Part shown: in pieces, positions 3,024 to 26,006 of the stretch
Position numbering within the stretch: the stretch's first letter is position 1
Layout: every line of letters begins with the position of its first letter
NCBI GenBank assembly: GCA_964394855.1
Contig: CAYMZD010000002.1
Coordinates: forward strand, 60,575 to 124,574
Length of the DNA stretch: 64,000 nucleotides
Source: an uncultured Gammaproteobacteria bacterium
GTDB taxonomy: Bacteria; Patescibacteriota; Microgenomatia; Daviesbacterales; UBA10151
Direction: 5' to 3'
Program-made: the position numbers and the translations under genes
The notes under the pieces: model-generated
Databases searched by the model: none
Told to the model about the DNA's origin: nothing
The model's input: the letters and a program-made list of their open reading frames with translations, nothing else

Positions 3024-3836
3024 ATGAAGAAGGCAATTTTTTTAATTTTGGTTTTAGTGAGCCTCTTGATATTATTAGTCCGATTTGGGGCTGTACCACT
3101 TTTGGGTTTACTTAATGTTAAAGAAAAAGCTGGTTTAAAAATACAATCAACTCCTAGCGCAGCACAGGTTTTTGTTGATGAGTTATCAGTTGGTAAAACT
3201 CCTTTTGAAGAGGATAATTTCACTCCAGGTGAGAAAATTGTTAGATTGGAAATTGGTGAAAATAAATGGCAAGGTCAAGTTAAACTAGTTGAGGGGACGC
3301 TGACAGTGATTAATAGGGATCTAGCAAAAGATAATACCTCGTCTGCGGGTGAGATATTAACATTAGAAAAAGGCGCTGGGGCAACAGTCATCTCGCTACC
3401 TTCAGAAGCAATGGTGGAGATTGATGGTAAGACAGAGGGTCTCACTCCTTTAAAAATAGATTTGACCGTAGGAGAACACACCTTTGTAATTTCCAAAGGA
3501 GAATATCTTAAAAGGGGTATTCGGGTCCAAGTCCCGGCAGGATTTAATTTGATTTTGACTGTAGATTTGGCTTTGACTGAAACAGATTTGACTAATGTAA
3601 ACTTCCCCACAGTAACTGGTACCTCTTTCTTGGTGGTAAAAAATACTCCCACCGGATTTTTAAGAGTCAGAGATAAACCTTCGCTTTCAGGTGCAGAAGT
3701 GACCAGGGTTTCCCCTGGGGATGAACTGATTTTATTGGAGGAGGGATCTTCCTGGGATAAAATCAGATTACCCAATGGCACAGAAGGTTATGTCTCCACT
3801 AGTTATGTAGAGAAAAAGACATCTCAAGCTCCTTAA
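3024..3836 (+). CDS. secreted/membrane-anchored protein with PEGA repeats and a C-terminal SH3b domain
   Basis: Signal/TM N-terminus (MKKAIFLILVLVSLLILLV). Two PEGA-like segments (VFVDELSVGKTPFE and VEIDGKTEGLTPLKIDLTVGEHTFVISKGEY). C-terminal SH3b-like segment (LRVRDKPSLSGAEVTRVSPGDELILLEEGSSWDKIRLPNGTEGYV). Confidence 0.55.
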   Translation: MKKAIFLILVLVSLLILLVRFGAVPLLGLLNVKEKAGLKIQSTPSAAQVFVDELSVGKTPFEEDNFTPGEKIVRLEIGENKWQGQVKLVEGTLTVINRDLAKDNTSSAGEILTLEKGAGATVISLPSEAMVEIDGKTEGLTPLKIDLTVGEHTFVISKGEYLKRGIRVQVPAGFNLILTVDLALTETDLTNVNFPTVTGTSFLVVKNTPTGFLRVRDKPSLSGAEVTRVSPGDELILLEEGSSWDKIRLPNGTEGYVSTSYVEKKTSQAP

Positions 3837-4756
3837 TAAGAGGTAATAATAATGACCAGGAAAAGCCAGATTAAAACTGATGCCAGGAGTGGTTTATCAG
3901 TGATGAGTACTCTCTCTGGTGATTCTCCTTCTTTTTTCTCATAAATTATATAGAGATAGCGCATCACCCCATAAATAACAACTGGTACAGTGGCCATAAA
4001 GTATTTAGCTTCAAAAACTGATAAATTCAACTGTCCCAAAAAAATCACTAAATTTCTAGGAGTTAAAATTGTTGGTTGCAGAAAAGCAAATAGAGCATAA
4101 GTTAGCCAGGTGGAGTTGGCAAACATAGAGGTTAAAATATCCAGCAAACTTTCCGGATAATGCAGTAGAGTCTCTCGATGTTTAAAGGCTTGGCTCTGCA
4201 TTAAAGTTCGCTCTGAACGTCTTTTGCCTATAGCTAAAAATAGGGCAAAAGAGGTGATAGAGAGAAGAAACCAAACATTTAGATGAGCATCAATTATCCA
4301 CACTCCGCCGTAGACCCGTAGAACAAAGCCGGCAGCAATGACCATAATATCCAAGAGAATGATCTGCTTTAAGTAAGCTGAATAAAAAAGCTGCAAAATT
4401 AAATAGAGAAAAGAGGCCAGAAAAAAAGCAGGAGATAGTTTATAAGATAGCGGTAAAAGGATAAAAATTAAGACCAAGGCAAAACCGGCAGCTACATATG
4501 GGGGGATTAAACCAGAGGCAATGGGACGCTTTTTTTTAAATGGATGAAGTTTATCTCTTTCTATATCAAAGACATCATTTAAAAGATAAGTAGCTGAAGA
4601 GAAACCACAAAAAAGCAGAAAACCATAAAATGTCCTTAGTTGCAATTCAGGTACAAACAGCGAACCAGAGAGAAGTAATGCAGCAAAAACTGCAAAATTT
4701 TTTATCCATTGTCTTGGTCGTAAGGCTTTGATAAGCCCCCAAAGAAATTGAGCCAA
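3833..4756 (-). CDS. UbiA-family prenyltransferase resembling decaprenyl-phosphate 5-phosphoribosyltransferase (DPPR synthase)
   Basis: N-terminus RPRQWIKN plus LNDVFDIERDKLHPFKKKRPIASG (UbiA Asp-rich motif NDxxDxxxD); multiple TM helices; 55-nt overlap with the upstream WecA-like gene. Confidence 0.55.
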   Translation of the reverse strand: MAQFLWGLIKALRPRQWIKNFAVFAALLLSGSLFVPELQLRTFYGFLLFCGFSSATYLLNDVFDIERDKLHPFKKKRPIASGLIPPYVAAGFALVLIFILLPLSYKLSPAFFLASFLYLILQLFYSAYLKQIILLDIMVIAAGFVLRVYGGVWIIDAHLNVWFLLSITSFALFLAIGKRRSERTLMQSQAFKHRETLLHYPESLLDILTSMFANSTWLTYALFAFLQPTILTPRNLVIFLGQLNLSVFEAKYFMATVPVVIYGVMRYLYIIYEKKEGESPERVLITDKPLLASVLIWLFLVIIITSY

Positions 4757-5787
4757 AGTAATCCTCCTAATAAGCTTGCTCCTACTAAAATGGCGGCAAA
4801 AACCTTCCCCCGGCTATCTAAGGTGAGAGCAACAGCTCCCAGAATAGCAGAAAGGAGCATATAAAACAAGCTGATTTGTTGATGAGTTAGCCCTAAGTCT
4901 AAAAGACGATGATGCAGGTGTCCTCTATCTCCCCAAAGAGGCGACTTACCAGATAATACTCGTCTCCAAAAAGTATAGATAAAATCTGTGGCGGGAACTA
5001 GCAGGACTAAACCGGCAGTGGCCAGTTTGGCACCAGATAAAATAGCCAGAGTAGCTATCATAAAACCCAAGATAGTGGAGCCGGAAAATCCGGGGAATAT
5101 TTTGGCTGGATGCCAATTAAAAATTAAAAATGCCAAAGAGGTGGCGGCAGTGACAAATGAAATCCGGGCAATATTAAACTGATTGGGATCTCCTTGCCAA
5201 AAAAGCTTTAAAGATAAAATCCCCAAAATGGTGGCGGCAACTACCACAATACCTGGCATCTGACCATCTACCCCCTTTGACCAATTAATCATATTCATGA
5301 CCCAGACAATCCAAAAAATAGCCAAGATATCAGCTAGTAGAATAATCTGATGGGCCCCAAAAAAATTAATAGGCAAAGTGACAGTATCCAATCTGATAAT
5401 CCCTCCCAAGGGATTGGTAATAAAGGTAATCCCCACCCCGGCTAAAACTACTATCAATGCTGCCAAGAATTGAGCTATGAGACGAATATATGGGGATAAG
5501 TTATGAAATTTATCGTCAGCCAAGCCGACTATCAATAAAACCAAAAGAGAAATAATGATGCCAATGATATGTTTTTGCAAGGGAACAAATAATAATATTG
5601 TTGCCACTAGCCCCAGAAAACAAGCCAATCCCCCTGCTCTGGGTACCACTCTTTTTTGGACATGAGCTGGATGGGGTCGCAGTTTTGGATCGTCCATTAA
5701 ACTATATTTTTGGGCCAATTTAATGGTCAAGGGTATGGAAAAAGCAGTGATTAAAAAAGCAACAATAGCTGGGAAAATAATCTCCAT
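4702..5787 (-). CDS. polyprenyl-phosphate N-acetylhexosamine-1-phosphate transferase (MraY/WecA family, GT4)
   Basis: Motifs GLADDKFHNLSPYIRL and VMNMINWSKGVDGQMPG (the D-D and NxxNxxDGxDG motifs of the MraY/WecA family); ~10 TM helices. Start placed at the internal Met (MEIIFPAIV, 5787), which abuts the stop of the upstream small ORF. The track ORF extends to 5841. Confidence 0.6.
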   Translation of the reverse strand: MEIIFPAIVAFLITAFSIPLTIKLAQKYSLMDDPKLRPHPAHVQKRVVPRAGGLACFLGLVATILLFVPLQKHIIGIIISLLVLLIVGLADDKFHNLSPYIRLIAQFLAALIVVLAGVGITFITNPLGGIIRLDTVTLPINFFGAHQIILLADILAIFWIVWVMNMINWSKGVDGQMPGIVVVAATILGILSLKLFWQGDPNQFNIARISFVTAATSLAFLIFNWHPAKIFPGFSGSTILGFMIATLAILSGAKLATAGLVLLVPATDFIYTFWRRVLSGKSPLWGDRGHLHHRLLDLGLTHQQISLFYMLLSAILGAVALTLDSRGKVFAAILVGASLLGGLLWLNFFGGLSKPYDQDNG

Positions 5788-6122
5788 TAGATAAAAATTA
5801 AAATAATTTTCATAAAACTGACCAGTAAAACAGTGGCACAAACCAGCGATGTAGCTTGTATGACTTGTTTAAAAAGGCGCTGCTTATCATGCAGCTGCCA
5901 GTAAATCATTAAATTGATTAGGGTAATGCAAACTAAAATGGCGGGCAGGATGAAAAATTGTGGCAGCATTGCCAGCTGCCCCTCGCCCCAGGGAAGAGAG
6001 TAAAACAAAGGTAATTTAGATGGAGAAAATATTGGCATGAAAAGAATTACCGTGGTCATCACCACAGCCAAAAATATTGGCCATAACTCAATTTTTAAGA
6101 AAACTTTTGCTTTACGGCCCAT
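5787..6122 (-). CDS. small polytopic membrane protein (111 aa), hypothetical
   Basis: Three hydrophobic helices; overlaps the GT2 stop and abuts the WecA-like start, so it is likely co-translated within the operon. Confidence 0.35.
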   Translation of the reverse strand: MGRKAKVFLKIELWPIFLAVVMTTVILFMPIFSPSKLPLFYSLPWGEGQLAMLPQFFILPAILVCITLINLMIYWQLHDKQRLFKQVIQATSLVCATVLLVSFMKIILIFI

Positions 6123-7900
6123 CAGCTATTTTTCCCCTGCAATCTGGTTTTAATGGTTGTCCTAAACTCTAGATATTTTCCCAACATTAAAGTAGTTTGG
6201 GCATCAATAGCAGGTAGGGAAGCAATAGTCACCAGCACAATAGGTACCAACAGCCATTGGAAATATGAGAAAAACTTTTTTATCAAAGACCAATTGGGGG
6301 GTCTTTTGGGAATAGTTTTTTCATGAACATAGATGGTGGAAAAAAGCCCCAAAAAGGCAATGGTTAAAACCCAAGACGAAGCAATAGAGAGATTATAGGC
6401 CACGACAGATTCTGAATATTGGGGATTGATAAAACCGATTAAAACACCGCCAAAAGTAATAAAAAGTGCCAGCGTACCCCATTTTAAGTATGACCAAATT
6501 ATAAAAATTAATCGGTCGGTTTTATTCCAAAAATCTAATCGTGAGTTTTTAAAGTATTGTTTAATAATAAATGGAAGATGTTCTACGCCATAAGCCCACC
6601 TTTTAAGTTGTAAATATTGATTTTGGAAAGTTTTCAAAAGATTAACATCAACCACGGTGTCAGCGCTAATTGGTAAGTAATGAGGAATGACTTTATAATC
6701 ACCATCAAAATAATAATATGCTTTCCAGAAAAATCCGGCATCATCATTAACTTTATCAGGAATCCACAGCCCCACATCAAGTAATGATTTTAAGTTGATG
6801 GAGAGGGAGGAAAAGTTGATATATTTATCGCTCCCCACCATTTCTGATATTTGCCAAAAGGCAGTGCCAGAGGCAATGACCCGCATTGGGGCAGGAGCTT
6901 GCCAGTAGTTGTTGTAATATAAAAATACTCCGGTAAAAGAACGTTTATCCCGTTCATTCTCTGGGGTTTTTAAGTATTTATGTAAAGCCCCTGCTAAAAA
7001 TTGAGGATGAATCACAAAATCAGCATCCAGAGTGGTCACAAAAACATCCTCTGGTTTGATACCCAGTTTTTTGAATTCTGAAACGGCATTTTTGATCATC
7101 CAGTTTCTGTTAGTTCCTGGTCCTGGCACCTCACCTGATAGCCCAAAAGGGTGTATGGTGGTGAAAACTCCGCCAATTTTTTTAGAGTACTTTGCTAAAT
7201 ATTTCTTAGTTTCATTGATTTTTTTAAGATCATCCCTCTGCTCAAAACCAACAGCCAAAAAAAGTTTTTTCTGGGGATAACTGGAATGGGCAATAGCCTC
7301 AAAAGCAGGAGCTAAAACCTCCAGAGGCTCTTTATAAGTGGGTAAAAGTAAGAGGTGGTAGTATTTTTCCCACTGGCGAGGAAAATCTTGTTCTAGTTCT
7401 TCTAGCCAATTTTGTTTGGCTGCCCAGGTAAATTTTTTATAACCTATAAAAATTAAAATGGCAATTTTTAAAGAGTTAAAAAGCCAATAGATGTCAGCTA
7501 ATATGATTAGGTAGGCAACAGCAAAAGGTAGGGTGAATGAAAGCCAAATGGGAGAGGTTAAAGCTAACCAAGTTAAGGCCCCAGGTAGGATTTCCAATAA
7601 ACGCTCTACTTTAGTGTCATGTTTTTGAATAAAATCTCTTTCTATTTTTTCAGAGAAAAGATACCGTTCGGATAAAAGATGATGGGCAATGATCCCCACG
7701 CCTGCTCCTACCAGAAAATAACCAGCCAAAATATTTAAAGGGTAGCCTAAACCTGGTCCCCAAATTCCCAAAATTATTCCAGCCAAAATGGAAAACAGTC
7801 CCACTAGAGAGTGAAGTTTGATCTTGACAACTTGTTTAAAAAGGGCAGCAAGGTAAAAAAATGATAACAGTCCAATTAAAAGCGCCAAAAGAAATCTCAT
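6122..7900 (-). CDS. processive family-2 glycosyltransferase (cellulose/chitin/hyaluronan-synthase-like) with N- and C-terminal TM bundles
   Basis: GT2 DxD motif (TTLDADFVIHP), SADTVVD, and the hallmark processive-synthase motif QLKRW (QxxRW); TM helices on both flanks of the catalytic domain. Confidence 0.6.
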   Translation of the reverse strand: MRFLLALLIGLLSFFYLAALFKQVVKIKLHSLVGLFSILAGIILGIWGPGLGYPLNILAGYFLVGAGVGIIAHHLLSERYLFSEKIERDFIQKHDTKVERLLEILPGALTWLALTSPIWLSFTLPFAVAYLIILADIYWLFNSLKIAILIFIGYKKFTWAAKQNWLEELEQDFPRQWEKYYHLLLLPTYKEPLEVLAPAFEAIAHSSYPQKKLFLAVGFEQRDDLKKINETKKYLAKYSKKIGGVFTTIHPFGLSGEVPGPGTNRNWMIKNAVSEFKKLGIKPEDVFVTTLDADFVIHPQFLAGALHKYLKTPENERDKRSFTGVFLYYNNYWQAPAPMRVIASGTAFWQISEMVGSDKYINFSSLSINLKSLLDVGLWIPDKVNDDAGFFWKAYYYFDGDYKVIPHYLPISADTVVDVNLLKTFQNQYLQLKRWAYGVEHLPFIIKQYFKNSRLDFWNKTDRLIFIIWSYLKWGTLALFITFGGVLIGFINPQYSESVVAYNLSIASSWVLTIAFLGLFSTIYVHEKTIPKRPPNWSLIKKFFSYFQWLLVPIVLVTIASLPAIDAQTTLMLGKYLEFRTTIKTRLQGKNS

Positions 7901-8676
7901 GCTGAAAGTAAGTTTACAACATTTGTAGTTGTTTGTCTTGCCAGCTCTTCCAAGGAGAGATTTTTAATATGCGCCACCACTTTAGCAGCTTCCACTACAT
8001 TGGCCGGTTCATTGCGTTTACCCCTTTGTATTTGTGGGGGTAAAAAGGGGGAGTCTGTTTCCAAAACTATTCTATCTAAGGGTAATAATTTTATAGCTTC
8101 AAGTAAATAATCGTTTTTTGGGTAGGTGATATTGCAGGCAAAGGAAACTAAGAAGTTGGTGGAATTAAGAGCTAGATTAGTGGTAGATGGTAAACCGCTG
8201 TAGCAGTGGTAAATTCCAAAATGATCTTTGGTCATTTGCAAAACCTCATCCCAGGCATCTCGACAGTGGACTATTAAAGGTAAATGCAATTTTTTGGCCA
8301 AGTCAATTTGGGCTTGAAAAAGTTTTCTTTGTGCTTTCTTAGTTTGTTCGTCAATATCCTTATAATCCAAACCGCATTCTCCCACAGCCACAACTTTCTC
8401 CGGTGCACTGCGGTATATTTCCTCAAGTAGTTTACCCTGAGCGAGTGGAGCGAGTCGAAGGGCTTCATGGGGATGAATGCCAATGGTGGATAAAACTCGT
8501 AATCCTTTTGGCCAAGGATAATTTTTTACTTGTTCCAGGGCTTTTCGGGAAGTTTTAATATCAACCCCTATATTAATAATGTAGGAAACCTTGGCCGCCA
8601 CAGCTTTTTTAATTACCTCATCAAAATCATCTTTGAATGAATCCCAATATAAATGCGCATGTGTATCAGCTAACAT
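7897..8676 (-). CDS. tatD: TatD-family metal-dependent hydrolase/DNase
   Basis: MLADTHAHLYWDSF N-terminus (HxH); IGIHPHEA, VAVGECGLDY and ETDSPFL motifs typical of TatD. Confidence 0.8.
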   Translation of the reverse strand: MLADTHAHLYWDSFKDDFDEVIKKAVAAKVSYIINIGVDIKTSRKALEQVKNYPWPKGLRVLSTIGIHPHEALRLAPLAQGKLLEEIYRSAPEKVVAVGECGLDYKDIDEQTKKAQRKLFQAQIDLAKKLHLPLIVHCRDAWDEVLQMTKDHFGIYHCYSGLPSTTNLALNSTNFLVSFACNITYPKNDYLLEAIKLLPLDRIVLETDSPFLPPQIQRGKRNEPANVVEAAKVVAHIKNLSLEELARQTTTNVVNLLSA

Positions 8677-8678
8677 AA

Positions 8679-8993
8679 TTAAGGATTTTTAATTATTTCC
8701 TCCAGAATTATTCTTTTTTTGAATTCTCCGCGATCAATAGCTTTTTGCTGTTTTATTTTTTGTAATTTAGTTGGATTAATATTTTTAAGTTTACAGATGG
8801 CATCAATAACTTCTAGCATATCTGCCAGTTCTTCAGGATTTTGTTCTTTTAAAAATTCCTCAACCTCTTCCTGCAACTTTTCCAGTAGTTTTTTTCTGTA
8901 TTCTTCATTGTTGGCAATATGAGTTATTGGGGTTTGCCCGTCTGCTTTGATAATTTCCGGAATTTTATCTCTGACTAATTTATTATATTTCAT
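8679..8993 (-). CDS. MazG-like small NTP pyrophosphohydrolase (house-cleaning NTPase family)
   Basis: ~100-aa all-helical protein; NKLVRDKIPEII N-terminus and EELADMLEVIDAI pattern typical of the short MazG-like/PRA-PH-like family. Confidence 0.5.
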   Translation of the reverse strand: MKYNKLVRDKIPEIIKADGQTPITHIANNEEYRKKLLEKLQEEVEEFLKEQNPEELADMLEVIDAICKLKNINPTKLQKIKQQKAIDRGEFKKRIILEEIIKNP

Positions 8994-10405: not shown

Positions 10406-10777
10406 TTACCTCCTTAAAGACTTAAGTTTAGGTATTTTCATGCTTGATGTCAAACTTTTTTTCTTTTGTTTTTGAAAATAACTGACAAATAAATAAACTG
10501 CCAGTAGAGTTAGCCCAGCTGTGACTAGATTCAAAGCATCAAGGGCTTTTAAAATTAAAAGTAAAATTAATCCAAAAGAAAGAAAAAAAGAGATGGGGGA
10601 TAAGTTAAGTACTAAATTAAAGGAAAAAGATAAAGCCAAAAATAAAGGGATGAAAAAAGCCAGAATTTGTAATAACGAGGCTTGGGTTAAACTTTTGGGA
10701 TATTCCACTTGAAAAATAACATAAGCAAAAATCCCCCAAAACGCTAAAGCCAAAGTGAATTTTAAAATTAAACTCAT
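10406..10777 (-). CDS. hypothetical polytopic membrane protein (123 aa)
   Basis: Four predicted TM helices, Lys-rich C-terminus; no family recognised. Confidence 0.3.
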   Translation of the reverse strand: MSLILKFTLALAFWGIFAYVIFQVEYPKSLTQASLLQILAFFIPLFLALSFSFNLVLNLSPISFFLSFGLILLLILKALDALNLVTAGLTLLAVYLFVSYFQKQKKKSLTSSMKIPKLKSLRR

Positions 10778-14053: not shown

Positions 14054-14551
14054 TTATACCCGATACAACCAAAAGTCTCCAGACTTTTTATATGGTTTCC
14101 AGTTTTTAAAATGGTAAGTTTGGGTGATAATTTTTGCATCTTTTTTTACCTCTTTTTTTAATTTGTTTTTCAGTTTAGCTACCCCTTCGTGTAAAAGATA
14201 AATAAATATTACATCTGCATCTGATAAATCTTTTTGAAAAATATTTCCATGAAAAAAATTGGCATTTGGTAAATTTCTCTGACGAGCTTTCCACCTGGAA
14301 TATAAAACTCTAATCCAGCTTTGCTCTATGCCGTAAGCTTCGGCCCCCATCCTGGCTGCCTCCAGGACTATTCTGCCGTCACCAGAACCCAATTCATAAA
14401 AATTTTTGCCTTTTAAATTGACAAGCTTTAGAGCTTTTTTAATTTTTTCTTGTTTAGTGGGAACAAAAGGGGCATCAGACCCCGCAAACCAGGACAATCC
14501 AATAAAACAACCAAGTAATACCCCACCCGTGATTATGAATGTTAATTCCAT
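14054..14551 (-). CDS. small class I SAM-dependent methyltransferase with N-terminal TM anchor
   Basis: TM helix, then motif I ELGSGDGRIVLEAARMGAEAYGIE and an acidic post-I loop. Confidence 0.5.
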   Translation of the reverse strand: MELTFIITGGVLLGCFIGLSWFAGSDAPFVPTKQEKIKKALKLVNLKGKNFYELGSGDGRIVLEAARMGAEAYGIEQSWIRVLYSRWKARQRNLPNANFFHGNIFQKDLSDADVIFIYLLHEGVAKLKNKLKKEVKKDAKIITQTYHFKNWKPYKKSGDFWLYRV

Positions 14552-15552
14552 TTAATTATCTTTAAAAGAAAAACTTTTAAAGGCATTAGTTTATCAATTA
14601 GAGTAAATATCCAATAAATGGGCCAATTAAAAACTAAATCATAAGTTCCAAGGTATTCTACCAGCTGCCCGCCATAACCTTGTTTGAATCTATGGAAACC
14701 AAAAAATGGATCTTTGGGATTTGCATCTGGTCCCAAGGCTCCCCACATGTCAAACTTCTTAAGCCCTAATTTTTTTCCCAATTTAATTGCTTCCCAAGCA
14801 ACCAAGTTATTGGCCATTACTTCCGGATGATCTTTGGAAGATCCCCCATAAGGATAATACAGAGTGTCTTTGAAATTTAGCAACATCCAGGCAGTTAGGG
14901 GTTTTTCCTGATAAAAAGCAATCAGTAATCTGGCCATATTGGCATTTTTTAAAGTAAGCCAAGCTTTTCTGTGATAGTTTTCATTGTGGCCATGATAACC
15001 CTGTCTTTGGGTAGTTTCAAAATATAGTTTTAAATAAATTTCAAAAGCTTTGTCATCTGAACATTGTTCTACTTTAACCCCATGTTTCTGGGCCAGCTTA
15101 ATGTTGTATCTGGTTTTAGGGTGCATATTTTTTAAAAGTTCCTCTTCAGATTTAATTAGGTCAATAATAAAGTTATATTTAGTGAATAAAGGTTTGGGGG
15201 AGGGGTGAAAATCGCTTATAACTAGGAACTCAGAACTAGGAACTAGGCTCTCTGGTTCCACTTTGATAAATGCACAATTTTGTTCCTTACCAATTTTTTT
15301 TAAAGCTTGGGCCAGCTCTTTGTCTGGCTGTGGACCTTTGGGTAGATACCCCACGGATTGATTGGTAAATGGAATTTTATGTAATGTTAACTGGAAAGCT
15401 TTTTGCAGTTTGCCATTTGTGTCAAGTCCATATCGCAACACTGGTATTCCCAAACTTTTTCTAAACTCTCCCCACTCCCATGATTGGATAACATGGGTGA
15501 CTAATTTATTATACTTTGCTTTTTGGTTATCTTCTATCAGTCTTAAATCCAC
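14542..15552 (-). CDS. FemAB-family peptidoglycan interpeptide-bridge aminoacyltransferase (FemX-like)
   Basis: Length and pattern (WEWGEFRK, HPKTRYNIKLAQKHGVKV, LYYPYGGSS, ANNLVAWEAIKLGKKLGLKKFDMWG) match the FemABX/GNAT-fold family. Confidence 0.65.
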   Translation of the reverse strand: MDLRLIEDNQKAKYNKLVTHVIQSWEWGEFRKSLGIPVLRYGLDTNGKLQKAFQLTLHKIPFTNQSVGYLPKGPQPDKELAQALKKIGKEQNCAFIKVEPESLVPSSEFLVISDFHPSPKPLFTKYNFIIDLIKSEEELLKNMHPKTRYNIKLAQKHGVKVEQCSDDKAFEIYLKLYFETTQRQGYHGHNENYHRKAWLTLKNANMARLLIAFYQEKPLTAWMLLNFKDTLYYPYGGSSKDHPEVMANNLVAWEAIKLGKKLGLKKFDMWGALGPDANPKDPFFGFHRFKQGYGGQLVEYLGTYDLVFNWPIYWIFTLIDKLMPLKVFLLKIIKWN

Positions 15553-16225: not shown

Positions 16226-16912
16226 TTACAATAGGTAAATATCAATAAATTGGGCCCTCCAGCCGGCAGTTTGTGCGTCATCAAAACCTAAATCAATAAT
16301 ATTGCCCTTAATGGCTCCACCAGTGTCCCCAGCTACTGCCACCCCATAACCCGGGATATAAACTTTCGATCGTAAGGGTATAACTTTGGGATCAACAGCA
16401 ATCACACCTTTACCTGCCCTCATACCAATGGCCGTCCATTCATTACAACCCAAACACTTTGAATCATAATGGGTGGCATAAACCCGCATTTTTTTCCAGT
16501 ATTTAATTTCTCCATCGGGAGTTACAAGGGTTTTCCAGACAATTTTAGTTCCCCGGGAAACAATTTTATCTGTGGGAGGGGTAATCTCGGTAGAGACTAT
16601 CTCCCTTTCATATTCTTCCCCTTCAAAAAAGGTAATTTTGATAATTTTTACTCTTTTGCCATCTTGACCTTCTTCTAAAACCTTATCTATTCCCGCTTCG
16701 GTTTCCGGATCATCCCGATAAATGGTCTTTTTAGGAATACTTTCAGTTTGCTCTTCCAATTTAGAGGTAAAACGGGACTCTGTTACCACCGGTTGGGTTA
16801 CGGGAAGAGTGTCCGGCGTACTTGCTTCGACAGTGGTTGGTGTAGTAGAGAGAAAATTTCTCCCCAAAAATATTAAAGCAAAGATTAAAATAGCCCCCAA
16901 ATATCTTTCCAT
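16226..16912 (-). CDS. secreted 3D-domain (MltA/YabE-like) protein with G5 domain
   Basis: Signal peptide; G5-like segment (GIDKVLEEGQDGKRVKIIKITF); C-terminal 3D domain with three conserved Asp (AVDPKVIPLRSKVYIPGYGVAVAGDTGGAIKGNIIDLGFDD). Confidence 0.6.
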   Translation of the reverse strand: MERYLGAILIFALIFLGRNFLSTTPTTVEASTPDTLPVTQPVVTESRFTSKLEEQTESIPKKTIYRDDPETEAGIDKVLEEGQDGKRVKIIKITFFEGEEYEREIVSTEITPPTDKIVSRGTKIVWKTLVTPDGEIKYWKKMRVYATHYDSKCLGCNEWTAIGMRAGKGVIAVDPKVIPLRSKVYIPGYGVAVAGDTGGAIKGNIIDLGFDDAQTAGWRAQFIDIYLL

Positions 16913-20032: not shown

Positions 20033-21220
20033 ATGAGGTACGTCAATATCCCTAAGTATTCTGATAGTTCTAATCGTAAAAGAAGTAACAGAATTTTAAA
20101 AAAATATAAACCCATTTTATTTTTGACTGCTTTGGTGGTAGCAATTGCTTTGGCAATGGCCATTTTTTCCGGCACAGAATCAGTTTTTCGCTTTGTTTTT
20201 CCAAGTTTGACACCGCTTGAAAATACTGATGGAAAAGTTAATGTACTTTTATTGGGTAACCCTGGAGGAGTGCATGATGGGGCATATCTGACAGATACCA
20301 TCATGGTGGCCTCATATAATTTAAAAAGTAGTCAAGTTTATTTTATCTCGCTGCCACGAGATTTATGGCTTGATAGCTACAAAGCTAAACTCAATGCTAT
20401 TTATGAGATAGGTTTGGCCAGAAAAGAAAGCTTAAAATTTGTCAAATCAGTAGTCGGTGATATCTTGGGTTTACCTATTCACTATGTCATCAGAGTTGAT
20501 TTTCGGGGTTTCGTCAAAGCTATTGATGAAGTGGGTGGTTTAGATATTTTAGTTGATCGTTCATTTAGTGACTCTTTATACCCTATTGAGGGTAAAGAAA
20601 ATGATTTGTGTGATTTAGAAGAAAAAGAAGTTGAGATTACAGATGAGCTGGCAGAAAAATATCAGCTAAAGATGGGAAAACAAAAAGTATTTATGGATTT
20701 TACGGGTAAGATTGCCACCCAGTCGGCAGATTTTCCCTGCCGCTTCGAACGTATTAGTTTTAGTGGTGGGCTGCAGCACATGAGCGGGGAAGTGGCCTTA
20801 AAATATGTTCGTTCTAGAATGGGCAGCAATGGGGAGGGTTCTGATTTTGCCAGATCCAAGCGTCAGCAAAAAGTACTGGAAGCTTTTCGCAAAAAGGCCT
20901 TATCTTTGGAAACCTTAGCTAGTCCCACCAAACTTAAATCTTTAATTGATACTTTGGGAATAAGTTTTGAAACTGATATACCAATAGATGATATGATTGA
21001 ACTTTATCGCTTAAGCAAAAAAAATCATCAGGTGGCTAATTTAGTCTTGGGGAATCTGCCATTTTTGATAAATCCACCAGCCCAAGATTATGGAGGAGCT
21101 TTTGTGGTAGTACCCAAAGACGGTAACTTTAATGAATTACACACATTCATCAAAAAAGTTATCAATGGGGAGGTGAGTTTAGATGAAGCTACTGCTTCTG
21201 CACGGACTGGCAATCGCTAG
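20033..21220 (+). CDS. LytR-CpsA-Psr (LCP) family cell-envelope glycopolymer transferase
   Basis: N-terminal TM anchor; LCP core (LLLGNPGGVHDGAYLTDTIMVASY, ISLPRDLWLD, KYVRSRMGSNGEGSDFARSKRQQKV). Confidence 0.7.
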   Translation: MRYVNIPKYSDSSNRKRSNRILKKYKPILFLTALVVAIALAMAIFSGTESVFRFVFPSLTPLENTDGKVNVLLLGNPGGVHDGAYLTDTIMVASYNLKSSQVYFISLPRDLWLDSYKAKLNAIYEIGLARKESLKFVKSVVGDILGLPIHYVIRVDFRGFVKAIDEVGGLDILVDRSFSDSLYPIEGKENDLCDLEEKEVEITDELAEKYQLKMGKQKVFMDFTGKIATQSADFPCRFERISFSGGLQHMSGEVALKYVRSRMGSNGEGSDFARSKRQQKVLEAFRKKALSLETLASPTKLKSLIDTLGISFETDIPIDDMIELYRLSKKNHQVANLVLGNLPFLINPPAQDYGGAFVVVPKDGNFNELHTFIKKVINGEVSLDEATASARTGNR

Positions 21221-21821
21221 CTCTAGAAAAAAATTAACTGACATTAAACAAAGCTTTACACCAGATAATGTGGTGACTTTCGAAAAAGGAGCAGAGCAGC
21301 AAGAGGTCTTGGCTAACTTACAATCTCTGTCTCTTTTTGCAGGTGAGAGGTTGGTTGTTTGGGAAAACCCCCCTGAAAGTTTTCAGTTAGCAGTCTTTTA
21401 TTCACAACTCCCCGTTACTTTAGCCCTATGGTTTGATCATGAGGTAGATACTAAAAATTGGAAAGATGCACAAACGTTATTTTTTCCAGAGGCAAAAGAA
21501 ATCTCTGTTTTTCCATTTTTAGACCACCTCGGTAATAAAGAAAGTAGCGCTTTTTCGGAACTGGATAAGTTAAAAAGAGGAGGCTTTGATAGTCAGTATA
21601 TTATTACTATGATTTTCTATCTTCTTAGGAATTTAGTAGCTACTCCCAAAAGTGCCAAAGCTTTTGTCAAAAGCAAAAATGAGAGGATGAAAGCCAATTT
21701 TTCTTTGGAGGAGTTAGTCAAATTGTACAGATCAGTTCTAGATTTAGATTTTAAAGTAAAAAGCGGCCTTTTGGATGAAACGCAAGCACAGTTTTTATTG
21801 GTTAATCTCTTTCTGTATTAA
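21183..21821 (+). CDS. holA: compact DNA polymerase III delta-subunit-like protein (HolA-like)
   Basis: SLFAGERLVVWENPPE resembles the delta-subunit clamp-loader motif (SLFA..LLLL.EN). Helical C-terminal domain. Weak, recalled from memory. Confidence 0.35.
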   Translation: MKLLLLHGLAIASSRKKLTDIKQSFTPDNVVTFEKGAEQQEVLANLQSLSLFAGERLVVWENPPESFQLAVFYSQLPVTLALWFDHEVDTKNWKDAQTLFFPEAKEISVFPFLDHLGNKESSAFSELDKLKRGGFDSQYIITMIFYLLRNLVATPKSAKAFVKSKNERMKANFSLEELVKLYRSVLDLDFKVKSGLLDETQAQFLLVNLFLY

Positions 21822-22709
21822 ATCTAAATCCTTTTTATCAACTTTTTCATCATCATTTAAATCAGCCCCTTTTTCTTTTGGGTTGGTGCCCATATTTTTT
21901 AAAACAATAGCATAATCGGAAGAGTTGATTAAACCATCTTTATTGAGATCAAATTTAGAATAAGCCGCAGGGGAAGCTTCATTTAATGTCAAGTTCAAAT
22001 CTTGGCCCATTTTTAATAAGATAAGAGGTTTATTCAGTTGTGATAACTTGAAAATGGCTCTAGCCACTCGTCCGTCTGGGCTGATAACTTCCAACTTGGC
22101 TTCTGTATCAGCTGGTGGATTTAATACCGCTGTCAGATCAGCTGTTCTAAGTTGACTAAGAGGAATGATAAAGGAACCAAGATCGGTGATAACTGCAGAC
22201 TGGATGGTAGCGTTAGGAATGGATAAATAGACCAGACCATCATGCAAGGGTTTATCTCCATCAATGACTGATCCAATGGTTGGTCCAAGGCCATTTTGGT
22301 TACTACTCAAAGGAGCGGTGGAAAATTGTCTGGAAGGAGTGACAAAATTACCAGAATGAATTTTTAGAAGATATGAAGATGCAGGCAGTAACCCCTTGAG
22401 GGTAATGTAATGATTTCTTCTTTTAATGGTCTGGGTTTCATCTCTGTCATCTAATTTGGTTTTTTCATTAGCAGTTCTTTGTCCATAAGTAATAAAACCA
22501 ATCACCGGAGTTTGGGTTTGCCATGATAAGGTGACAGTCTCACCTTCGATATTACTGATAACTACATTCTGTGGTGAAATATCAGGAGAAGCTGTGGTGA
22601 TTAAGGTTTGATTTTGTAGAACTAAATAGACACCACTGCCAATGCCAAAAATCAGTAAAGCTAGTCCTAAAAGAGTTGGGATTTTAAACTTATTTAAAAT
22701 ATTACTCAT
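21795..22709 (-). CDS. membrane-anchored extracellular protein with fibronectin-III-like domain and C-terminal type-I dockerin (two Ca-binding repeats)
   Basis: Signal-anchor (LLGLALLIFGIGSGVYLVL); FN3-like core (ETVTLSWQTQTPVIGFITYGQ...YLLKIHS); dockerin repeats DLNKDGLINSSDYAIVLKNMG and DLNDDEKVDKKDLDLIQKEI. Confidence 0.55.
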   Translation of the reverse strand: MSNILNKFKIPTLLGLALLIFGIGSGVYLVLQNQTLITTASPDISPQNVVISNIEGETVTLSWQTQTPVIGFITYGQRTANEKTKLDDRDETQTIKRRNHYITLKGLLPASSYLLKIHSGNFVTPSRQFSTAPLSSNQNGLGPTIGSVIDGDKPLHDGLVYLSIPNATIQSAVITDLGSFIIPLSQLRTADLTAVLNPPADTEAKLEVISPDGRVARAIFKLSQLNKPLILLKMGQDLNLTLNEASPAAYSKFDLNKDGLINSSDYAIVLKNMGTNPKEKGADLNDDEKVDKKDLDLIQKEINQ

Positions 22710-22876: not shown

Positions 22877-23482
22877 TTACTTCAAGTAGTAAGCCTTTCC
22901 GGAAATTGACAATAATAAATTGCTCCCTCCTTCTATTTTGCTAAAAATTAAATTATCAACGGTAATCAGTCTTTGACTTGTTTTAATATATTCTAAAACT
23001 TTTAGCAAGTTTTCATATGAACCCTCCAAATTATAAGTAAAGGGTACTTCTGTCAGCCGCTTTGAGAAAGATGTTGAGTTTGGTTCGATGGTGATTTGTT
23101 GGAACTGTAATGCTGATATTGAGGCTTGGAGCCCTGAAGGTAAATTTTCCAAGGATTTAGTTAAAGCCGCCAGCTCTGGATTATTAGGGACTGCATCTTG
23201 GATACTGGCTTTAATATTGGGGTCTAGGCTTTGATAGTTTTTTCTGGCTTTTGTCAAATCTTCACTTTTTTGAGTAATTTGATTAAGAATTACTTCTTGG
23301 TTAGCTAATTCTTTTTGTAAAACAAGAATGGTTTCTATGGTAGGTTTAATGGCAAAAATGGTAAAAATGATGATGGCGGCAATTGTCAGGATTATTCCTC
23401 CATATGTTTTAATAAGTGGGGTTTTTAAGACAGGCTCAATATAGGTAAAATATCTAGATGTTCTGGTTGATCTGGCAATCAT
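22877..23482 (-). CDS. pilO: type IV pilus assembly protein PilO-like
   Basis: Short cytoplasmic N-terminus, one TM (GGIILTIAAIIIFTIFAI), coiled-coil, then periplasmic alpha/beta domain; 4-nt overlap with the pilN-like stop. Confidence 0.5.
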   Translation of the reverse strand: MIARSTRTSRYFTYIEPVLKTPLIKTYGGIILTIAAIIIFTIFAIKPTIETILVLQKELANQEVILNQITQKSEDLTKARKNYQSLDPNIKASIQDAVPNNPELAALTKSLENLPSGLQASISALQFQQITIEPNSTSFSKRLTEVPFTYNLEGSYENLLKVLEYIKTSQRLITVDNLIFSKIEGGSNLLLSISGKAYYLK

Positions 23483-24063
23483 AATTTTTTTTCTCCTATT
23501 GTCTCTACGTTAACTGATGCCTGGATGGAGAAATTAATTAACCCCTGATCCAAACTGACGCTAGTCAAATTCGTATCAGCAAAGGTTTTATCCTGTCTAA
23601 GTCCCAAAACAAAGCTGGACAGCTCACTGTTATTTAAAGATGTCCCGGTTATCTTGAGATTAACCTTTCCCACCTGTCTTTCAATATTTAAATTGTTAAC
23701 AGTGACGCCATTGGGTGTTTGTTGAGCAATTTTTTTTATCACCTCAACATAAGCAGGAGACTTTTGTCTTAAATCTTTGATGGTGACCAATTGAAATTGG
23801 GTTTGTCTAATTAAGTTTTCATCTGATTTTAAACTTTCCACAAAAGGAACTTGTTCCTCTATGGCCTCCTTGGTGGTAGCGATGTCAGCATCTAACTTAA
23901 ATCTTAATAAAAACGCCGCCAGTACTATAGCCTCTACTAAGATGATTAAATATCGACCGGCAGAAAGTAGCCAGCGAAAAATATTTAGCAGTAGTTTTTG
24001 AGGCTCACCTTGGGGATGGAGGATATTAAGATAAATTAGGCTTTTTAACCTAAGTTTAGGCAT
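23479..24063 (-). CDS. pilN: type IV pilus assembly protein PilN-like
   Basis: N-terminal cytoplasmic peptide, TM (YLIILVEAIVLAAFLL), coiled-coil and periplasmic domain typical of PilN. Confidence 0.5.
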   Translation of the reverse strand: MPKLRLKSLIYLNILHPQGEPQKLLLNIFRWLLSAGRYLIILVEAIVLAAFLLRFKLDADIATTKEAIEEQVPFVESLKSDENLIRQTQFQLVTIKDLRQKSPAYVEVIKKIAQQTPNGVTVNNLNIERQVGKVNLKITGTSLNNSELSSFVLGLRQDKTFADTNLTSVSLDQGLINFSIQASVNVETIGEKKL

Positions 24064-24075
24064 GAATACATTGTA

Positions 24076-24333
24076 CTACTTTTTAGAGGTTTTTCTAACT
24101 ACTTTTGGTAGTCTTGATAATGTTGATTTTAATCGCGCGGACTTATTTTTATGAATTAGATGAGTTTTGGCCGCTTTATCAAGTGCAGAAAAAACTGCCT
24201 TGAGATTAAGGTCATTTTTTTCTATCCTGGCTTTTTTAATCAAGGATTTTAAGTTACTTTCCTGTTGCTTGTGGCGCCGGGTTCTAGTGCGGTCTTTTCT
24301 TAATTTTTTAATGGCTGATTTGATGAGTGGCAT
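24076..24333 (-). CDS. rpsT: 30S ribosomal protein S20
   Basis: MPLIKSAIKKLRKDRTRTRRHK ... basic helical 85-aa protein matching S20. Confidence 0.85.
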   Translation of the reverse strand: MPLIKSAIKKLRKDRTRTRRHKQQESNLKSLIKKARIEKNDLNLKAVFSALDKAAKTHLIHKNKSARLKSTLSRLPKVVRKTSKK

Positions 24334-26006
24334 ATGGGCAGTATGGTAACATATATGAAGTGGTTAAATCAATCCTTTCTCTTTTAACTGTCAGGCAAAC
24401 TTCAATTTTATCTGGTGCTATTATTATTATGGCCACAGTGGTAATTTCCAAAATTTTGGGACTTTTACGTGATAGATTATTAGTGCACAATTTTACTCCT
24501 GACACTGTGGCTATTTTTTTTGCCGCCTTCCGTCTACCTGATTTAATTTTCCAGCTGTTAATTTTTGGAGCATTGTCAGTAGCTTTTATTCCTGTTTTTA
24601 CAGAGTACTTAGAAGGAAAAGGAAAAAATGAGGCTTTTCAGCTGGCCGGCTCAATCTTAAATTTAGCTCTCTTAATCTTAATTATAGTCACGGCAGTGAT
24701 GTTTCTGCTGGTTGAGCCCTTAACTTCTTTGATAGTTCCCGGTTTTAACCCACAGCAACAAGGGCAAGTAGCCCAGTTAACCAGGATAATTTTACTGGGT
24801 CAGATTGTCTTGACTATTGGCTCTTTTTTTATCGGTATTTTACAATCATTTCAAAGATTTATCATCCCGGCTTTAGCAGGAATTTTTTATAATTTGGGAA
24901 TTATTTTGGGGATAGTATTTTTGGGAAAACCTTTGGGAATTTTAGGTCCAGCCGTAGGAGTTATTATTGGGGCTGGTTTACACGGCCTAATTCAGCTGCC
25001 TTTGGTTTTATCGCTGGGTTTTAAGATTAGTTTTTCTAGGTTGTTACATCCAGGAGTAAAAGACTTAGTTCAACTGATGAGTATGAGAACAATTGGTTTG
25101 GCAGCAGAACAGGTCAATGAAACTGTAGGTTTAATTTTAGCTTCCCTAATTTCTACGGCCTCTGTGACATATCTCACCTTTGCCCAGCATTTGCAAATTG
25201 TGCCGGTTGGTCTTTTCGGGGCAACTATTGCTCAAGCCGCCCTGCCGGTTTTGTCAACAGAGAGGGCTAGAGGTCGGGTGGAAGAGTTTAAATCTACTCT
25301 TTTAACCACGATTCATCAAATTCTTTTTTTAAGTTTGCCAGCTGCCGCCATTTTAATAGTGCTTCGTATTCCTGCAGTCAGACTTATTTTTGGAGCCTCA
25401 CAGTTTGATTGGCCTTCAACTGTTTTAACAGGTAAAACCTTAGCTTTTTTATCCATTGGTCTGGCAACTCAAGCAGTCTCGCTGCTTTTAGTCAGAGGGT
25501 TTTATGCCCTCAAGGATACCCGGACTCCGGTTTTGGTATCCTTGGTGGTAGTGGCAGTGGATATTTTTTTGAGCTTTTATTTTATTAGAGTGCTAAATTT
25601 AGAGGTGTGGGGTTTGGGACTCGCTTTTTCCATTTCTAGTATTTTATCTGGGTTGTTGCTTTTTTTAACTCTTCATTTTAAAGTGGGTGGATTTAAGATG
25701 AGTTCTGTTTTATCACCCTTTTTAAAAATGTTAATGGCCACAATGATTATGGGAGTGGCTTTATATGTGCCCATCAAACTTTTGGATCAAGTAATTTTTG
25801 ATACCACCAGAACTGTTAATTTACTAATTTTAACAAGCTTAGCTTTCATTTTTGCTCTGTCTGTTTATGTAGTTTTGGTCTGGTTTATGAGAGTAAAAGA
25901 ACTGGCAACTTTTATTAATTTGTTAAAACATGTATTTGGAAAGGTGCGAGCAGTTGGTTCTCAAGTCAAAACAGAAGAAATTATCCACGAAACAGAAACA
26001 CTTTAG
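24327..26006 (+). CDS. murJ: lipid II flippase MurJ (MviN)
   Basis: 14 TM MOP-superfamily protein; N-terminal SGAIIIMATVVISKILGLLRDRLL matches the MurJ TM1 signature. The track start is a GTG that overlaps the rpsT start by 7 nt, so the exact start is uncertain. Confidence 0.8.
   Translation: MAYGQYGNIYEVVKSILSLLTVRQTSILSGAIIIMATVVISKILGLLRDRLLVHNFTPDTVAIFFAAFRLPDLIFQLLIFGALSVAFIPVFTEYLEGKGKNEAFQLAGSILNLALLILIIVTAVMFLLVEPLTSLIVPGFNPQQQGQVAQLTRIILLGQIVLTIGSFFIGILQSFQRFIIPALAGIFYNLGIILGIVFLGKPLGILGPAVGVIIGAGLHGLIQLPLVLSLGFKISFSRLLHPGVKDLVQLMSMRTIGLAAEQVNETVGLILASLISTASVTYLTFAQHLQIVPVGLFGATIAQAALPVLSTERARGRVEEFKSTLLTTIHQILFLSLPAAAILIVLRIPAVRLIFGASQFDWPSTVLTGKTLAFLSIGLATQAVSLLLVRGFYALKDTRTPVLVSLVVVAVDIFLSFYFIRVLNLEVWGLGLAFSISSILSGLLLFLTLHFKVGGFKMSSVLSPFLKMLMATMIMGVALYVPIKLLDQVIFDTTRTVNLLILTSLAFIFALSVYVVLVWFMRVKELATFINLLKHVFGKVRAVGSQVKTEEIIHETETL

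Follow-up and report, generated by a model that had tools for sequence, protein, structure and literature searches.

A putative envelope-glycan gene cluster with a divergent membrane synthase in Candidatus Daviesbacteria and other Patescibacteria

Five overlapping genes at the locus

Patescibacteria, or the candidate phyla radiation (CPR), account for a large part of bacterial diversity and are mostly uncultivated episymbionts whose envelope chemistry is barely characterised. Here we examine five adjoining minus-strand genes in a 64,000-nt stretch of DNA from Candidatus Daviesbacteria (Microgenomates, Patescibacteria/CPR), called the window throughout, and describe a candidate envelope-glycan cluster built around a divergent glycosyltransferase family 2 (GT2) protein. 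In order of transcription the genes encode a TatD-family hydrolase, the GT2 synthase-like protein, a small membrane protein with three transmembrane (TM) helices, a MraY/WecA-like member of the PNPT superfamily and a UbiA-family protein resembling decaprenylphosphoryl-5-phosphoribose (DPPR) synthase (Table 1). A protein encoded on contig JACQIZ010000003.1 of assembly GCA_016198205.1 matches the GT2 protein at 100% identity. An original prediction made from the letters of the DNA had read the five genes as a single operon for a polyprenyl-phosphate-linked glycan.

All five reading frames, and the overlaps of 4, 1, 1 and 55 nt predicted between them, are present in the sequence. The TatD and GT2 genes share an ATGA, the GT2 and small genes overlap by 1 nt in TGATG, and the small and PNPT-like genes overlap by 1 nt in TAATG, where we use the ATG at 5787 as the PNPT-like start and not the TTG at 5841 that begins the longest open reading frame (ORF). 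The 55-nt overlap between the PNPT-like and UbiA genes is credible because an AGGAGG lies 6 nt 5′ of the UbiA TTG, within the 3′ end of the PNPT-like gene, and because the N termini of homologues begin where this TTG puts the start. Real as they are, the overlaps are not the distinctive sign of one unit that they had been taken for. In a census of longest-ORF calls across the window, 25 of 45 same-strand junctions are overlapping or no more than 4 nt apart (18 of the 45 overlap), so tight junctions do not set these five genes apart and carry little weight for a shared function. The genes form the 3′ tail of a 15-gene co-directional array running from UvrD (18739) to UbiA (3833), which also contains a G5/3D protein, FemAB, SbcCD and methionyl-tRNA synthetase (MetRS), and a scan for promoters and terminators returned counts close to shuffled expectation.

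The GT2 synthase-like protein and its small partner

The GT2 protein consists of a three-TM N-terminal extension (residues 1–95), two TM helices, a GT-A domain, an interface helix bearing QLKRW and two or three C-terminal helices. It scores 16.9 bits against Pfam PF00535 (cut-off 23.3), matches no NCBIfam model and retrieves nothing in a sequence search of the PDB; a profile of its family finds weak matches to BcsA in the PDB (E 0.003), and 45 of 60 relatives match PF13632 at E ≤ 0.01. Because the PDB sequence search was empty and the profile matches were weak, structure prediction was needed to place the protein. In the predicted fold the catalytic domain packs against interface helices and a bundle of TM helices, as in membrane synthases, and its best Foldseek matches are of the BcsA and hyaluronan synthase (HAS) types: the 15 best are all channel-forming processive synthases, ranking ahead of the mannosyltransferase PcManGT. 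Catalytic motifs of the D, DxD, ED and QxxRW series are in place, including D292-A-D294 (DxD), the ED-type pair D386-D387 and Q431-L-K-R-W435, the first and last of which had been quoted in the original prediction. Across 60 relatives E191, D292, D294, D387, Q431, R434 and K584 are invariant, and W435 is kept in 55.

The protein ends in a gating-loop-like motif, F579-R-T-T-I-K584. Among the 60 relatives this segment has the consensus (F/Y)xVTxK, with the lysine present in all 60, the threonine in 50 and the valine in 46; in the window protein (FRTTIK) the consensus valine is replaced by threonine. An FxVTxK gating loop follows interface helix 3 in BcsA, CesA, CrdS and BgsA, where it makes contact with UDP and is needed for activity, whereas HAS and chitin synthases carry WGTR/KG in its place (PMC10592267, PMC6821405). 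We infer that the C-terminal motif of the GT2 family is the structural equivalent of this loop.

Likeness to either class of synthase is partial. BcsA, CesA, CrdS and BgsA share about 14% identity with the GT2 protein, the core of which has only about five TM helices; unlike BcsA-type synthases, it stops at the gating loop and has no TM7–8, PilZ domain or BcsB-like partner. Where those enzymes have a DDG motif the GT2 protein has E220-(E)-R, its gating motif reads FxTTxK, and Daviesbacteria GT2 proteins have proline for the KAG-like Lys261 of the family and threonine for Arg570. Class I HAS (Chlorella virus, Xenopus) is closer in build, with a core of about 500 aa, two N-terminal TM helices, a GT-A domain, interface helices and C-terminal TM helices, and it provides the best Foldseek matches (E 3e-10); however, TM-scores are 0.4–0.5 and identity is about 11%, and the HAS WGTR/KG motif contrasts with the FxVTxK of the GT2 family. 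From the fold and motifs we place the GT2 protein, as a minimal and deeply divergent member, in the membrane-synthase branch of GT2 and conclude that it uses a UDP-sugar, whereas its processivity, pore and product are extrapolated from these likenesses. The predicted processive synthase is thus borne out in its DxD, its QLKRW and its BcsA/HAS-like predicted fold; processivity itself stays conjectural. The 95-aa N-terminal extension is specific to Daviesbacteria and lies outside the family core of about 500 aa, in the same lineage that has no glycosyltransferase of the GT-C class within the cluster. It has no detectable homology, and as it resembles no protein of the cluster we rejected the idea that it is left over from the missing GT-C.

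The same features bear on a different role for the cluster, in which the PNPT-like protein would prime a short lipid-linked oligosaccharide, the GT2 protein would resemble archaeal PcManGT, a non-processive enzyme of minimal cellulose-synthase-like build, in adding one or a few sugars to the lipid-linked acceptor, and a GT-C would transfer glycan or individual sugars outside the cell to protein, pilin or S-layer. PcManGT (Pyrobaculum calidifontis; 346 aa; Gandini et al. 2020, as cited in PMC8993221) appears in the alignment to lack the N-terminal TM pair of the GT2 protein, which in this respect is like HAS. All 15 best structural matches being channel-forming synthases, an FxVTxK gating loop, which typifies polymerising beta-glucan synthases, and the frequent occurrence of GT2 genes with no PNPT or GT-C gene nearby also speak against short-oligosaccharide synthesis, which we regard as unlikely while giving it some weight.

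Pairs of a synthase and a small membrane subunit are familiar from PgaC–PgaD and IcaA–IcaD, in which a GT2 synthase gene is translationally coupled to a gene for a multi-TM protein of about 110 aa. In the synthase-dependent O-antigen route of Salmonella O:54, which joins a WecA primer to the WbbF synthase, a PNPT gene adjoins the synthase gene. Likeness of the present cluster to PgaC–PgaD, IcaA–IcaD and WecA–WbbF is confined to gene arrangement, and in neither sequence nor fold does the small three-TM protein detectably resemble PgaD or IcaD. Nor does it match known flippase families in Pfam, NCBIfam or fold comparison. It carries a conserved loop, LPxKLPLFYSLPWGExQL, and its gene lies downstream of GT2 in Microgenomates and upstream of it in Parcubacteria-type loci. 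Since the proteins encoded in both positions are homologous (hhalign probability 97.3%, E 2.8e-11), the small protein tracks GT2 and not UbiA, and we consider it a candidate accessory subunit of the GT2 protein.

The UbiA and PNPT-like proteins

The UbiA protein scores 73 bits in Pfam and falls just under the cut-offs of two DPPR-synthase models, NF008977 (215.7 versus 234 bits) and NF008978 (204 versus 207). The next models lie far below theirs (NF006088, a generic UbiA-family prenyltransferase, 145.1 versus 351; NF008976, DPPR synthase, 144.6 versus 474), and models for heme-O synthase, 4-hydroxybenzoate prenyltransferase and chlorophyll synthase give at most 29 bits; the generic model aside, none of prenyltransferase type scores above 48 bits. 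Its only PDB relatives are two entries for M. tuberculosis Rv3806c, the better being 8j8j (E 3.1e-34). Contacts of Rv3806c with Mg2+ and with the ribose, the pyrophosphate and the 5-phosphate of phosphoribosyl pyrophosphate (PRPP) are made by R22, K28, Y70, N73, D77, K87, R90, Q135, Y138, K143 and Y157 (PMC10994848); the matching residues in the window are R13, K19, Y57, N60, D64, K74, R77, Q122, Y125, K130 and F144, and motif residues D74 and D81 are kept as D61 and D68, completing the predicted N60-D-V-F-D64-I-E-R-D68. In total, 13 of 13 Rv3806c positions checked (ten PRPP/Mg contacts and the rest of NDxxDxxxD) are conserved, with Y157 as phenylalanine, a substitution also seen in some mycobacteria, and these contact and motif residues are conserved in 21 CPR homologues too. 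Because all checked Rv3806c residues are kept, assignment of the UbiA protein as a polyprenyl-phosphate 5-phosphoribosyltransferase (PPPRS) is strongly supported by its sequence. The predicted kinship with DPPR synthase, as opposed to menaquinone- or heme-O-type enzymes, is therefore upheld by the model scores and by the retained contacts. Rv3806c and the PPPRS proteins of C. youngae (ORF15) and P. aeruginosa (PsPA7_6246) belong to the same UbiA subfamily (PMC11127046, PMC10994848), and the present protein extends PPPRS beyond Actinobacteria and Proteobacteria.

Closeness to Rv3806c raises the question of a decaprenyl-phospho-arabinose pathway of mycobacterial type that supplies an arabinan, with DprE1/DprE2 and arabinofuranosyltransferases encoded elsewhere in the genome. 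Formally, the combination of PNPT, GT2 polymerase and PPPRS, joined in relatives by a GT-C, does parallel WecA, GlfT2, UbiA and Aft/Emb in arabinogalactan synthesis (PMC11127046). We looked for the missing parts: Pfam scans of window ORFs found no DprE1/DprE2-type epimerase, such as the original prediction proposed to seek, no PAP2 or HAD phosphatase and no MATE-, SMR- or GtrA-type flippase, and none of these epimerase, phosphatase or flippase families was seen among gene families common to at least five related loci, which were checked by eye and not HMM-scanned. We judge the arabinan pathway very improbable.

The PNPT-like protein is a multi-TM member of Pfam Glycos_transf_4 (PF00953, 102.6 bits versus a cut-off of 27) that shares a DDxxF/K motif and an HxHH loop with WecA/TagO and MraY, and its scores against equivalog models lie far below the cut-offs (wecA TIGR02380, 100.9 versus 326.05; MraY TIGR00445, 40.3 versus 192.05). 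We compared its residues through a MAFFT alignment to E. coli WecA and a HMMER alignment to MraY 5jnq, and the two agree. The DD of WecA D90 and D91 is retained (LADDKF), as is the H279-IHH loop (HLHH) and the second aspartate of NxxNxxDGxDG. At the position of WecA D156 stands a lysine (N-M-I-N-W-S-K-G-V-D-G), and at that of D217 a phenylalanine (F-P-G-F-S-G-S, compared with GDxGS). The latter is the aspartate next to Mg2+ in MraY (AaMraY D265, BsMraY D231), and both this position and that of WecA D156 (BsMraY D174) are listed as catalytically important (PMC5039524). With two important aspartates missing, one of them at the Mg2+ site, the protein is not a canonical WecA; of the predicted WecA/MraY-like transferase the family membership stands, and the catalytic equivalence is in doubt.

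These replacements follow the UbiA gene. Among PNPT homologues linked to UbiA, all 26 have phenylalanine or tyrosine at the metal site and 23 have lysine at the other position; all 15 homologues from UbiA-less loci keep the first aspartate and have glutamate, serine or threonine at the metal site. The Mg2+ aspartate is lost and the lysine gained specifically in lineages with the PPPRS operon. One reading would have the PNPT-like protein act on or with the PPPRS product in place of making a WecA-type primer, giving Microgenomates a hitherto undescribed ribose-phosphate-anchored envelope polymer that is extruded by the minimal synthase and the small subunit; the PNPT-like protein may then, for example, attach a sugar phosphate at the 5-phosphate of polyprenyl-P-ribose-5-P, or pass the lipid to the synthase. 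We hold such an anchor to be quite improbable.

Conservation in Patescibacteria and a proposed pathway

GT2 relatives are numerous: a whole-library search returned 1607 representatives at 50% identity with E ≤ 0.001, 243 of them at ≤ 1e-30. Scanning a one-genome-per-species collection with a profile from 10 GT2 sequences, we found at least 589 matched stretches that encode a relative, nearly all labelled as Patescibacteria groups. We fetched 80 related loci and searched them by tblastn and custom hidden Markov models within the available flank. Four arrangements were seen. In Daviesbacteria (type A; 8 loci and the window) the order is MetRS-TatD-GT2-small-PNPT-UbiA. In other Microgenomates (type B; 17 loci) it is MetRS-(TatD)-GT2-GT-C-small-PNPT-UbiA, and in six of these (L021, L028, L046, L055, L070 and L081) a second GT-C gene directly follows UbiA, its product resembling protein O-mannosyltransferase (NF058602, 107 bits versus a cut-off of 800). 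Parcubacteria/Doudnabacteria-type loci (type C; 15) have small-GT2-PNPT preceded by two opposite-strand GT-C genes, with no UbiA, and in about 40 of the 80 loci (type D) GT2 occurs with no PNPT inside the available flank. Among the 80, the UbiA gene is limited to Microgenomates. The inserted GT-C proteins are about 500 aa long and fall in Pfam PMT_2; their sources call them GT39. Four Microgenomates loci also carry, between GT2 and GT-C, an extended short-chain dehydrogenase/reductase (SDR) of the nucleotide-sugar dehydratase/decarboxylase kind (Table 1); its best models, all below cut-off, are dTDP-glucose dehydratase and UDP-xylose/4-keto-pentose synthase, which hints at the sugar nucleotide used in those four loci. 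One locus has a GalU-like gene after UbiA.

Gene order also separates TatD from the rest. TatD comes after MetRS in most Microgenomates loci, is missing from seven loci in which GT2 directly follows MetRS, six of them type-B loci with the full GT2-GT-C-small-PNPT-UbiA series, and is absent from all type-C loci. Because it is dispensable in full clusters and travels with MetRS, it is not part of the glycan module, contrary to the original prediction; it is a bystander from the MetRS–TatD pair, probably co-transcribed with the cluster. From these comparisons of gene content we favour, with belief and doubt in about equal measure, a functional module of four genes (GT2, small three-TM, PNPT-like and UbiA) as the Daviesbacteria variant of a Patescibacteria-wide cluster.

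The genes could instead be neighbours by descent only, serving separate pathways (an exopolysaccharide synthase, a primer for a teichoic-acid-like or other secondary polymer, and a phosphoribosyl-lipid route), with the apparent operon a product of CPR genome compaction. That would sit well with the abundance of overlapping junctions in this genome, with an array that includes UvrD, SbcCD, MetRS and TatD, with GT2 standing alone in about half of the loci and with UbiA being confined to Microgenomates. However, the GT2-small-PNPT linkage outlasts a change of gene order between distant CPR classes, the active-site residues of the PNPT-like protein co-vary with the presence of UbiA (26/26 against 15/15), and GT-C genes are inserted within the cluster, not beside it. 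On balance we think separate pathways improbable.

On our preferred reading the cluster encodes an envelope glycan pathway of the synthase type that has a lipid-linked pentofuranose branch, and we would as readily see this confirmed as overturned. At the cytoplasmic face, the PPPRS would transfer 5-phosphoribose from PRPP to polyprenyl phosphate, yielding polyprenyl-P-ribofuranose-5-P, a step for which residue conservation gives strong support; once dephosphorylated and flipped by other proteins, this product would serve outside the membrane as a lipid-linked pentofuranose donor. The GT2 protein, probably with the small three-TM protein, would be an inverting, BcsA/HAS-type glycosyltransferase that draws on a UDP-sugar; at the membrane it would elongate a beta-linked glycan, most likely passing the chain through its own TM helices. 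Going by its conserved adjacency, the PNPT-like protein would provide, or keep in place, the polymer's polyprenyl-linked primer or anchor. In other Microgenomates, one or two in-cluster GT-C proteins (GT39/PMT_2-like) would decorate or lengthen the polymer outside the cell with the lipid-linked sugar, on the pattern of the experimentally established systems of PPPRS, flippase and GT-C (PMC11127046). In Daviesbacteria the GT-C is not in the cluster, and an LytR-CpsA-Psr (LCP) transferase could attach the polymer to peptidoglycan. The envelope polysaccharide pathway of the original prediction thus keeps its PPPRS and its synthase fold, loses TatD and can no longer call on a canonical WecA. The step we are least sure of is the chemistry of the PNPT-like protein, given the unusual active site. 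Beyond fold and residue conservation, we infer function throughout.

Sister Microgenomates, like the three-component pentofuranose systems of PPPRS, flippase and GT-C (Kelly et al. 2024), cluster a PPPRS gene with GT-C genes. By contrast, the cluster in Daviesbacteria lacks a GT-C, a phosphoribose phosphatase (whether fused or adjacent), a MATE/SMR/GtrA-type flippase and an epimerase, and a PPPRS gene overlapping a PNPT-like gene is not a feature of described pentofuranose systems. No GT-C was found in the window (by tblastn and a census of TM proteins) or in the eight other Daviesbacteria loci, and a GT-C-seeded database search retrieved Curtissbacteria and other Patescibacteria, with no named Daviesbacteria protein among the top 120. 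The LCP gene in the window implies attachment of some polyprenyl-PP-linked polymer to the peptidoglycan of the organism; lying 11 kb away, its product is a possible, weakly linked downstream user of what the cluster makes.

Each enzyme comes from a known superfamily, and the logic resembles synthase-dependent polymer synthesis combined with three-component pentofuranose addition. Our literature search found no paper on this glycan cluster in CPR, and the following are undescribed in the literature searched: across CPR, a minimal BcsA-like synthase whose sequence stops at the gating loop; the small partner conserved alongside it; a PNPT in which the metal-site aspartate is missing; and a PPPRS gene that overlaps the gene for that PNPT. 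As the cluster occurs in hundreds of species-level genomes beside housekeeping genes, it is a strong candidate for the source of a core surface polymer of CPR, of a kind expected to mediate host attachment, and the four proteins are open to expression and assay by published methods.

Table 1. Coordinates of the cluster genes and of other features; positions refer to the window except where a related locus is named
Feature	Position	Strand	Remarks
TatD-family hydrolase	7897–8676	-	Pfam TatD_DNase 229.5 bits
GT2 synthase-like glycosyltransferase, membrane-embedded	6122–7900	-	592 aa
Small membrane protein	5787–6122	-	111 aa; three TM helices
PNPT-superfamily (MraY/WecA-like) membrane protein	4702–5787	-	361 aa from ATG at 5787
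UbiA-family DPPR-synthase-like protein	3833–4756	-	307 aa; TTG start at 4756
AGGAGG ribosome-binding site for UbiA	4763–4768	-	read directly from sequence
LCP (LytR-CpsA-Psr) glycopolymer transferase	20033–21220	+	Pfam LytR_cpsA_psr 97.1 bits; TIGR00350 79.9 (cut-off 62.3)
Extended SDR, locus L025	11491–12435	-
Extended SDR, locus L032	2355–3293	-
Extended SDR, locus L035	11485–12429	-
Extended SDR, locus L076	11242–12177	-
Membrane-anchored PEGA + SH3b protein	3024–3836	+
Soluble ORF in array	8679–8993	-	104 aa; no significant Pfam match
Multi-TM ORF in array	10406–10777	-	123 aa; no significant Pfam match
FemAB-family peptidyl transferase	14542–15552	-
G5 + 3D (RpfB-like) protein	16226–16912	-
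Dockerin + fn3 surface protein	21795–22709	-
PilN/PilO	22877–24063	-
MurJ	24327–26006	+

The remaining observations concern the surroundings of the cluster. The gene for the PEGA and SH3b protein converges on UbiA, the two gene ends overlapping by 4 nt, and this neighbour is kept in 17 Microgenomates loci; it may encode a surface protein tied to the glycan cluster. Within the array, the 104-aa ORF has a 4-nt overlap with the MetRS stop. Nearby there are further envelope genes, among them those for FemAB, the G5 and 3D protein, MurJ, PilN/PilO and the dockerin and fn3 protein (Table 1). ARAGORN found zero tRNA genes across the 64-kb window, and GC content rises from about 0.36–0.39 to about 0.42–0.44 in a block at 32–48 kb that carries DnaK/DnaJ, IF-2 and PNPase-type genes.

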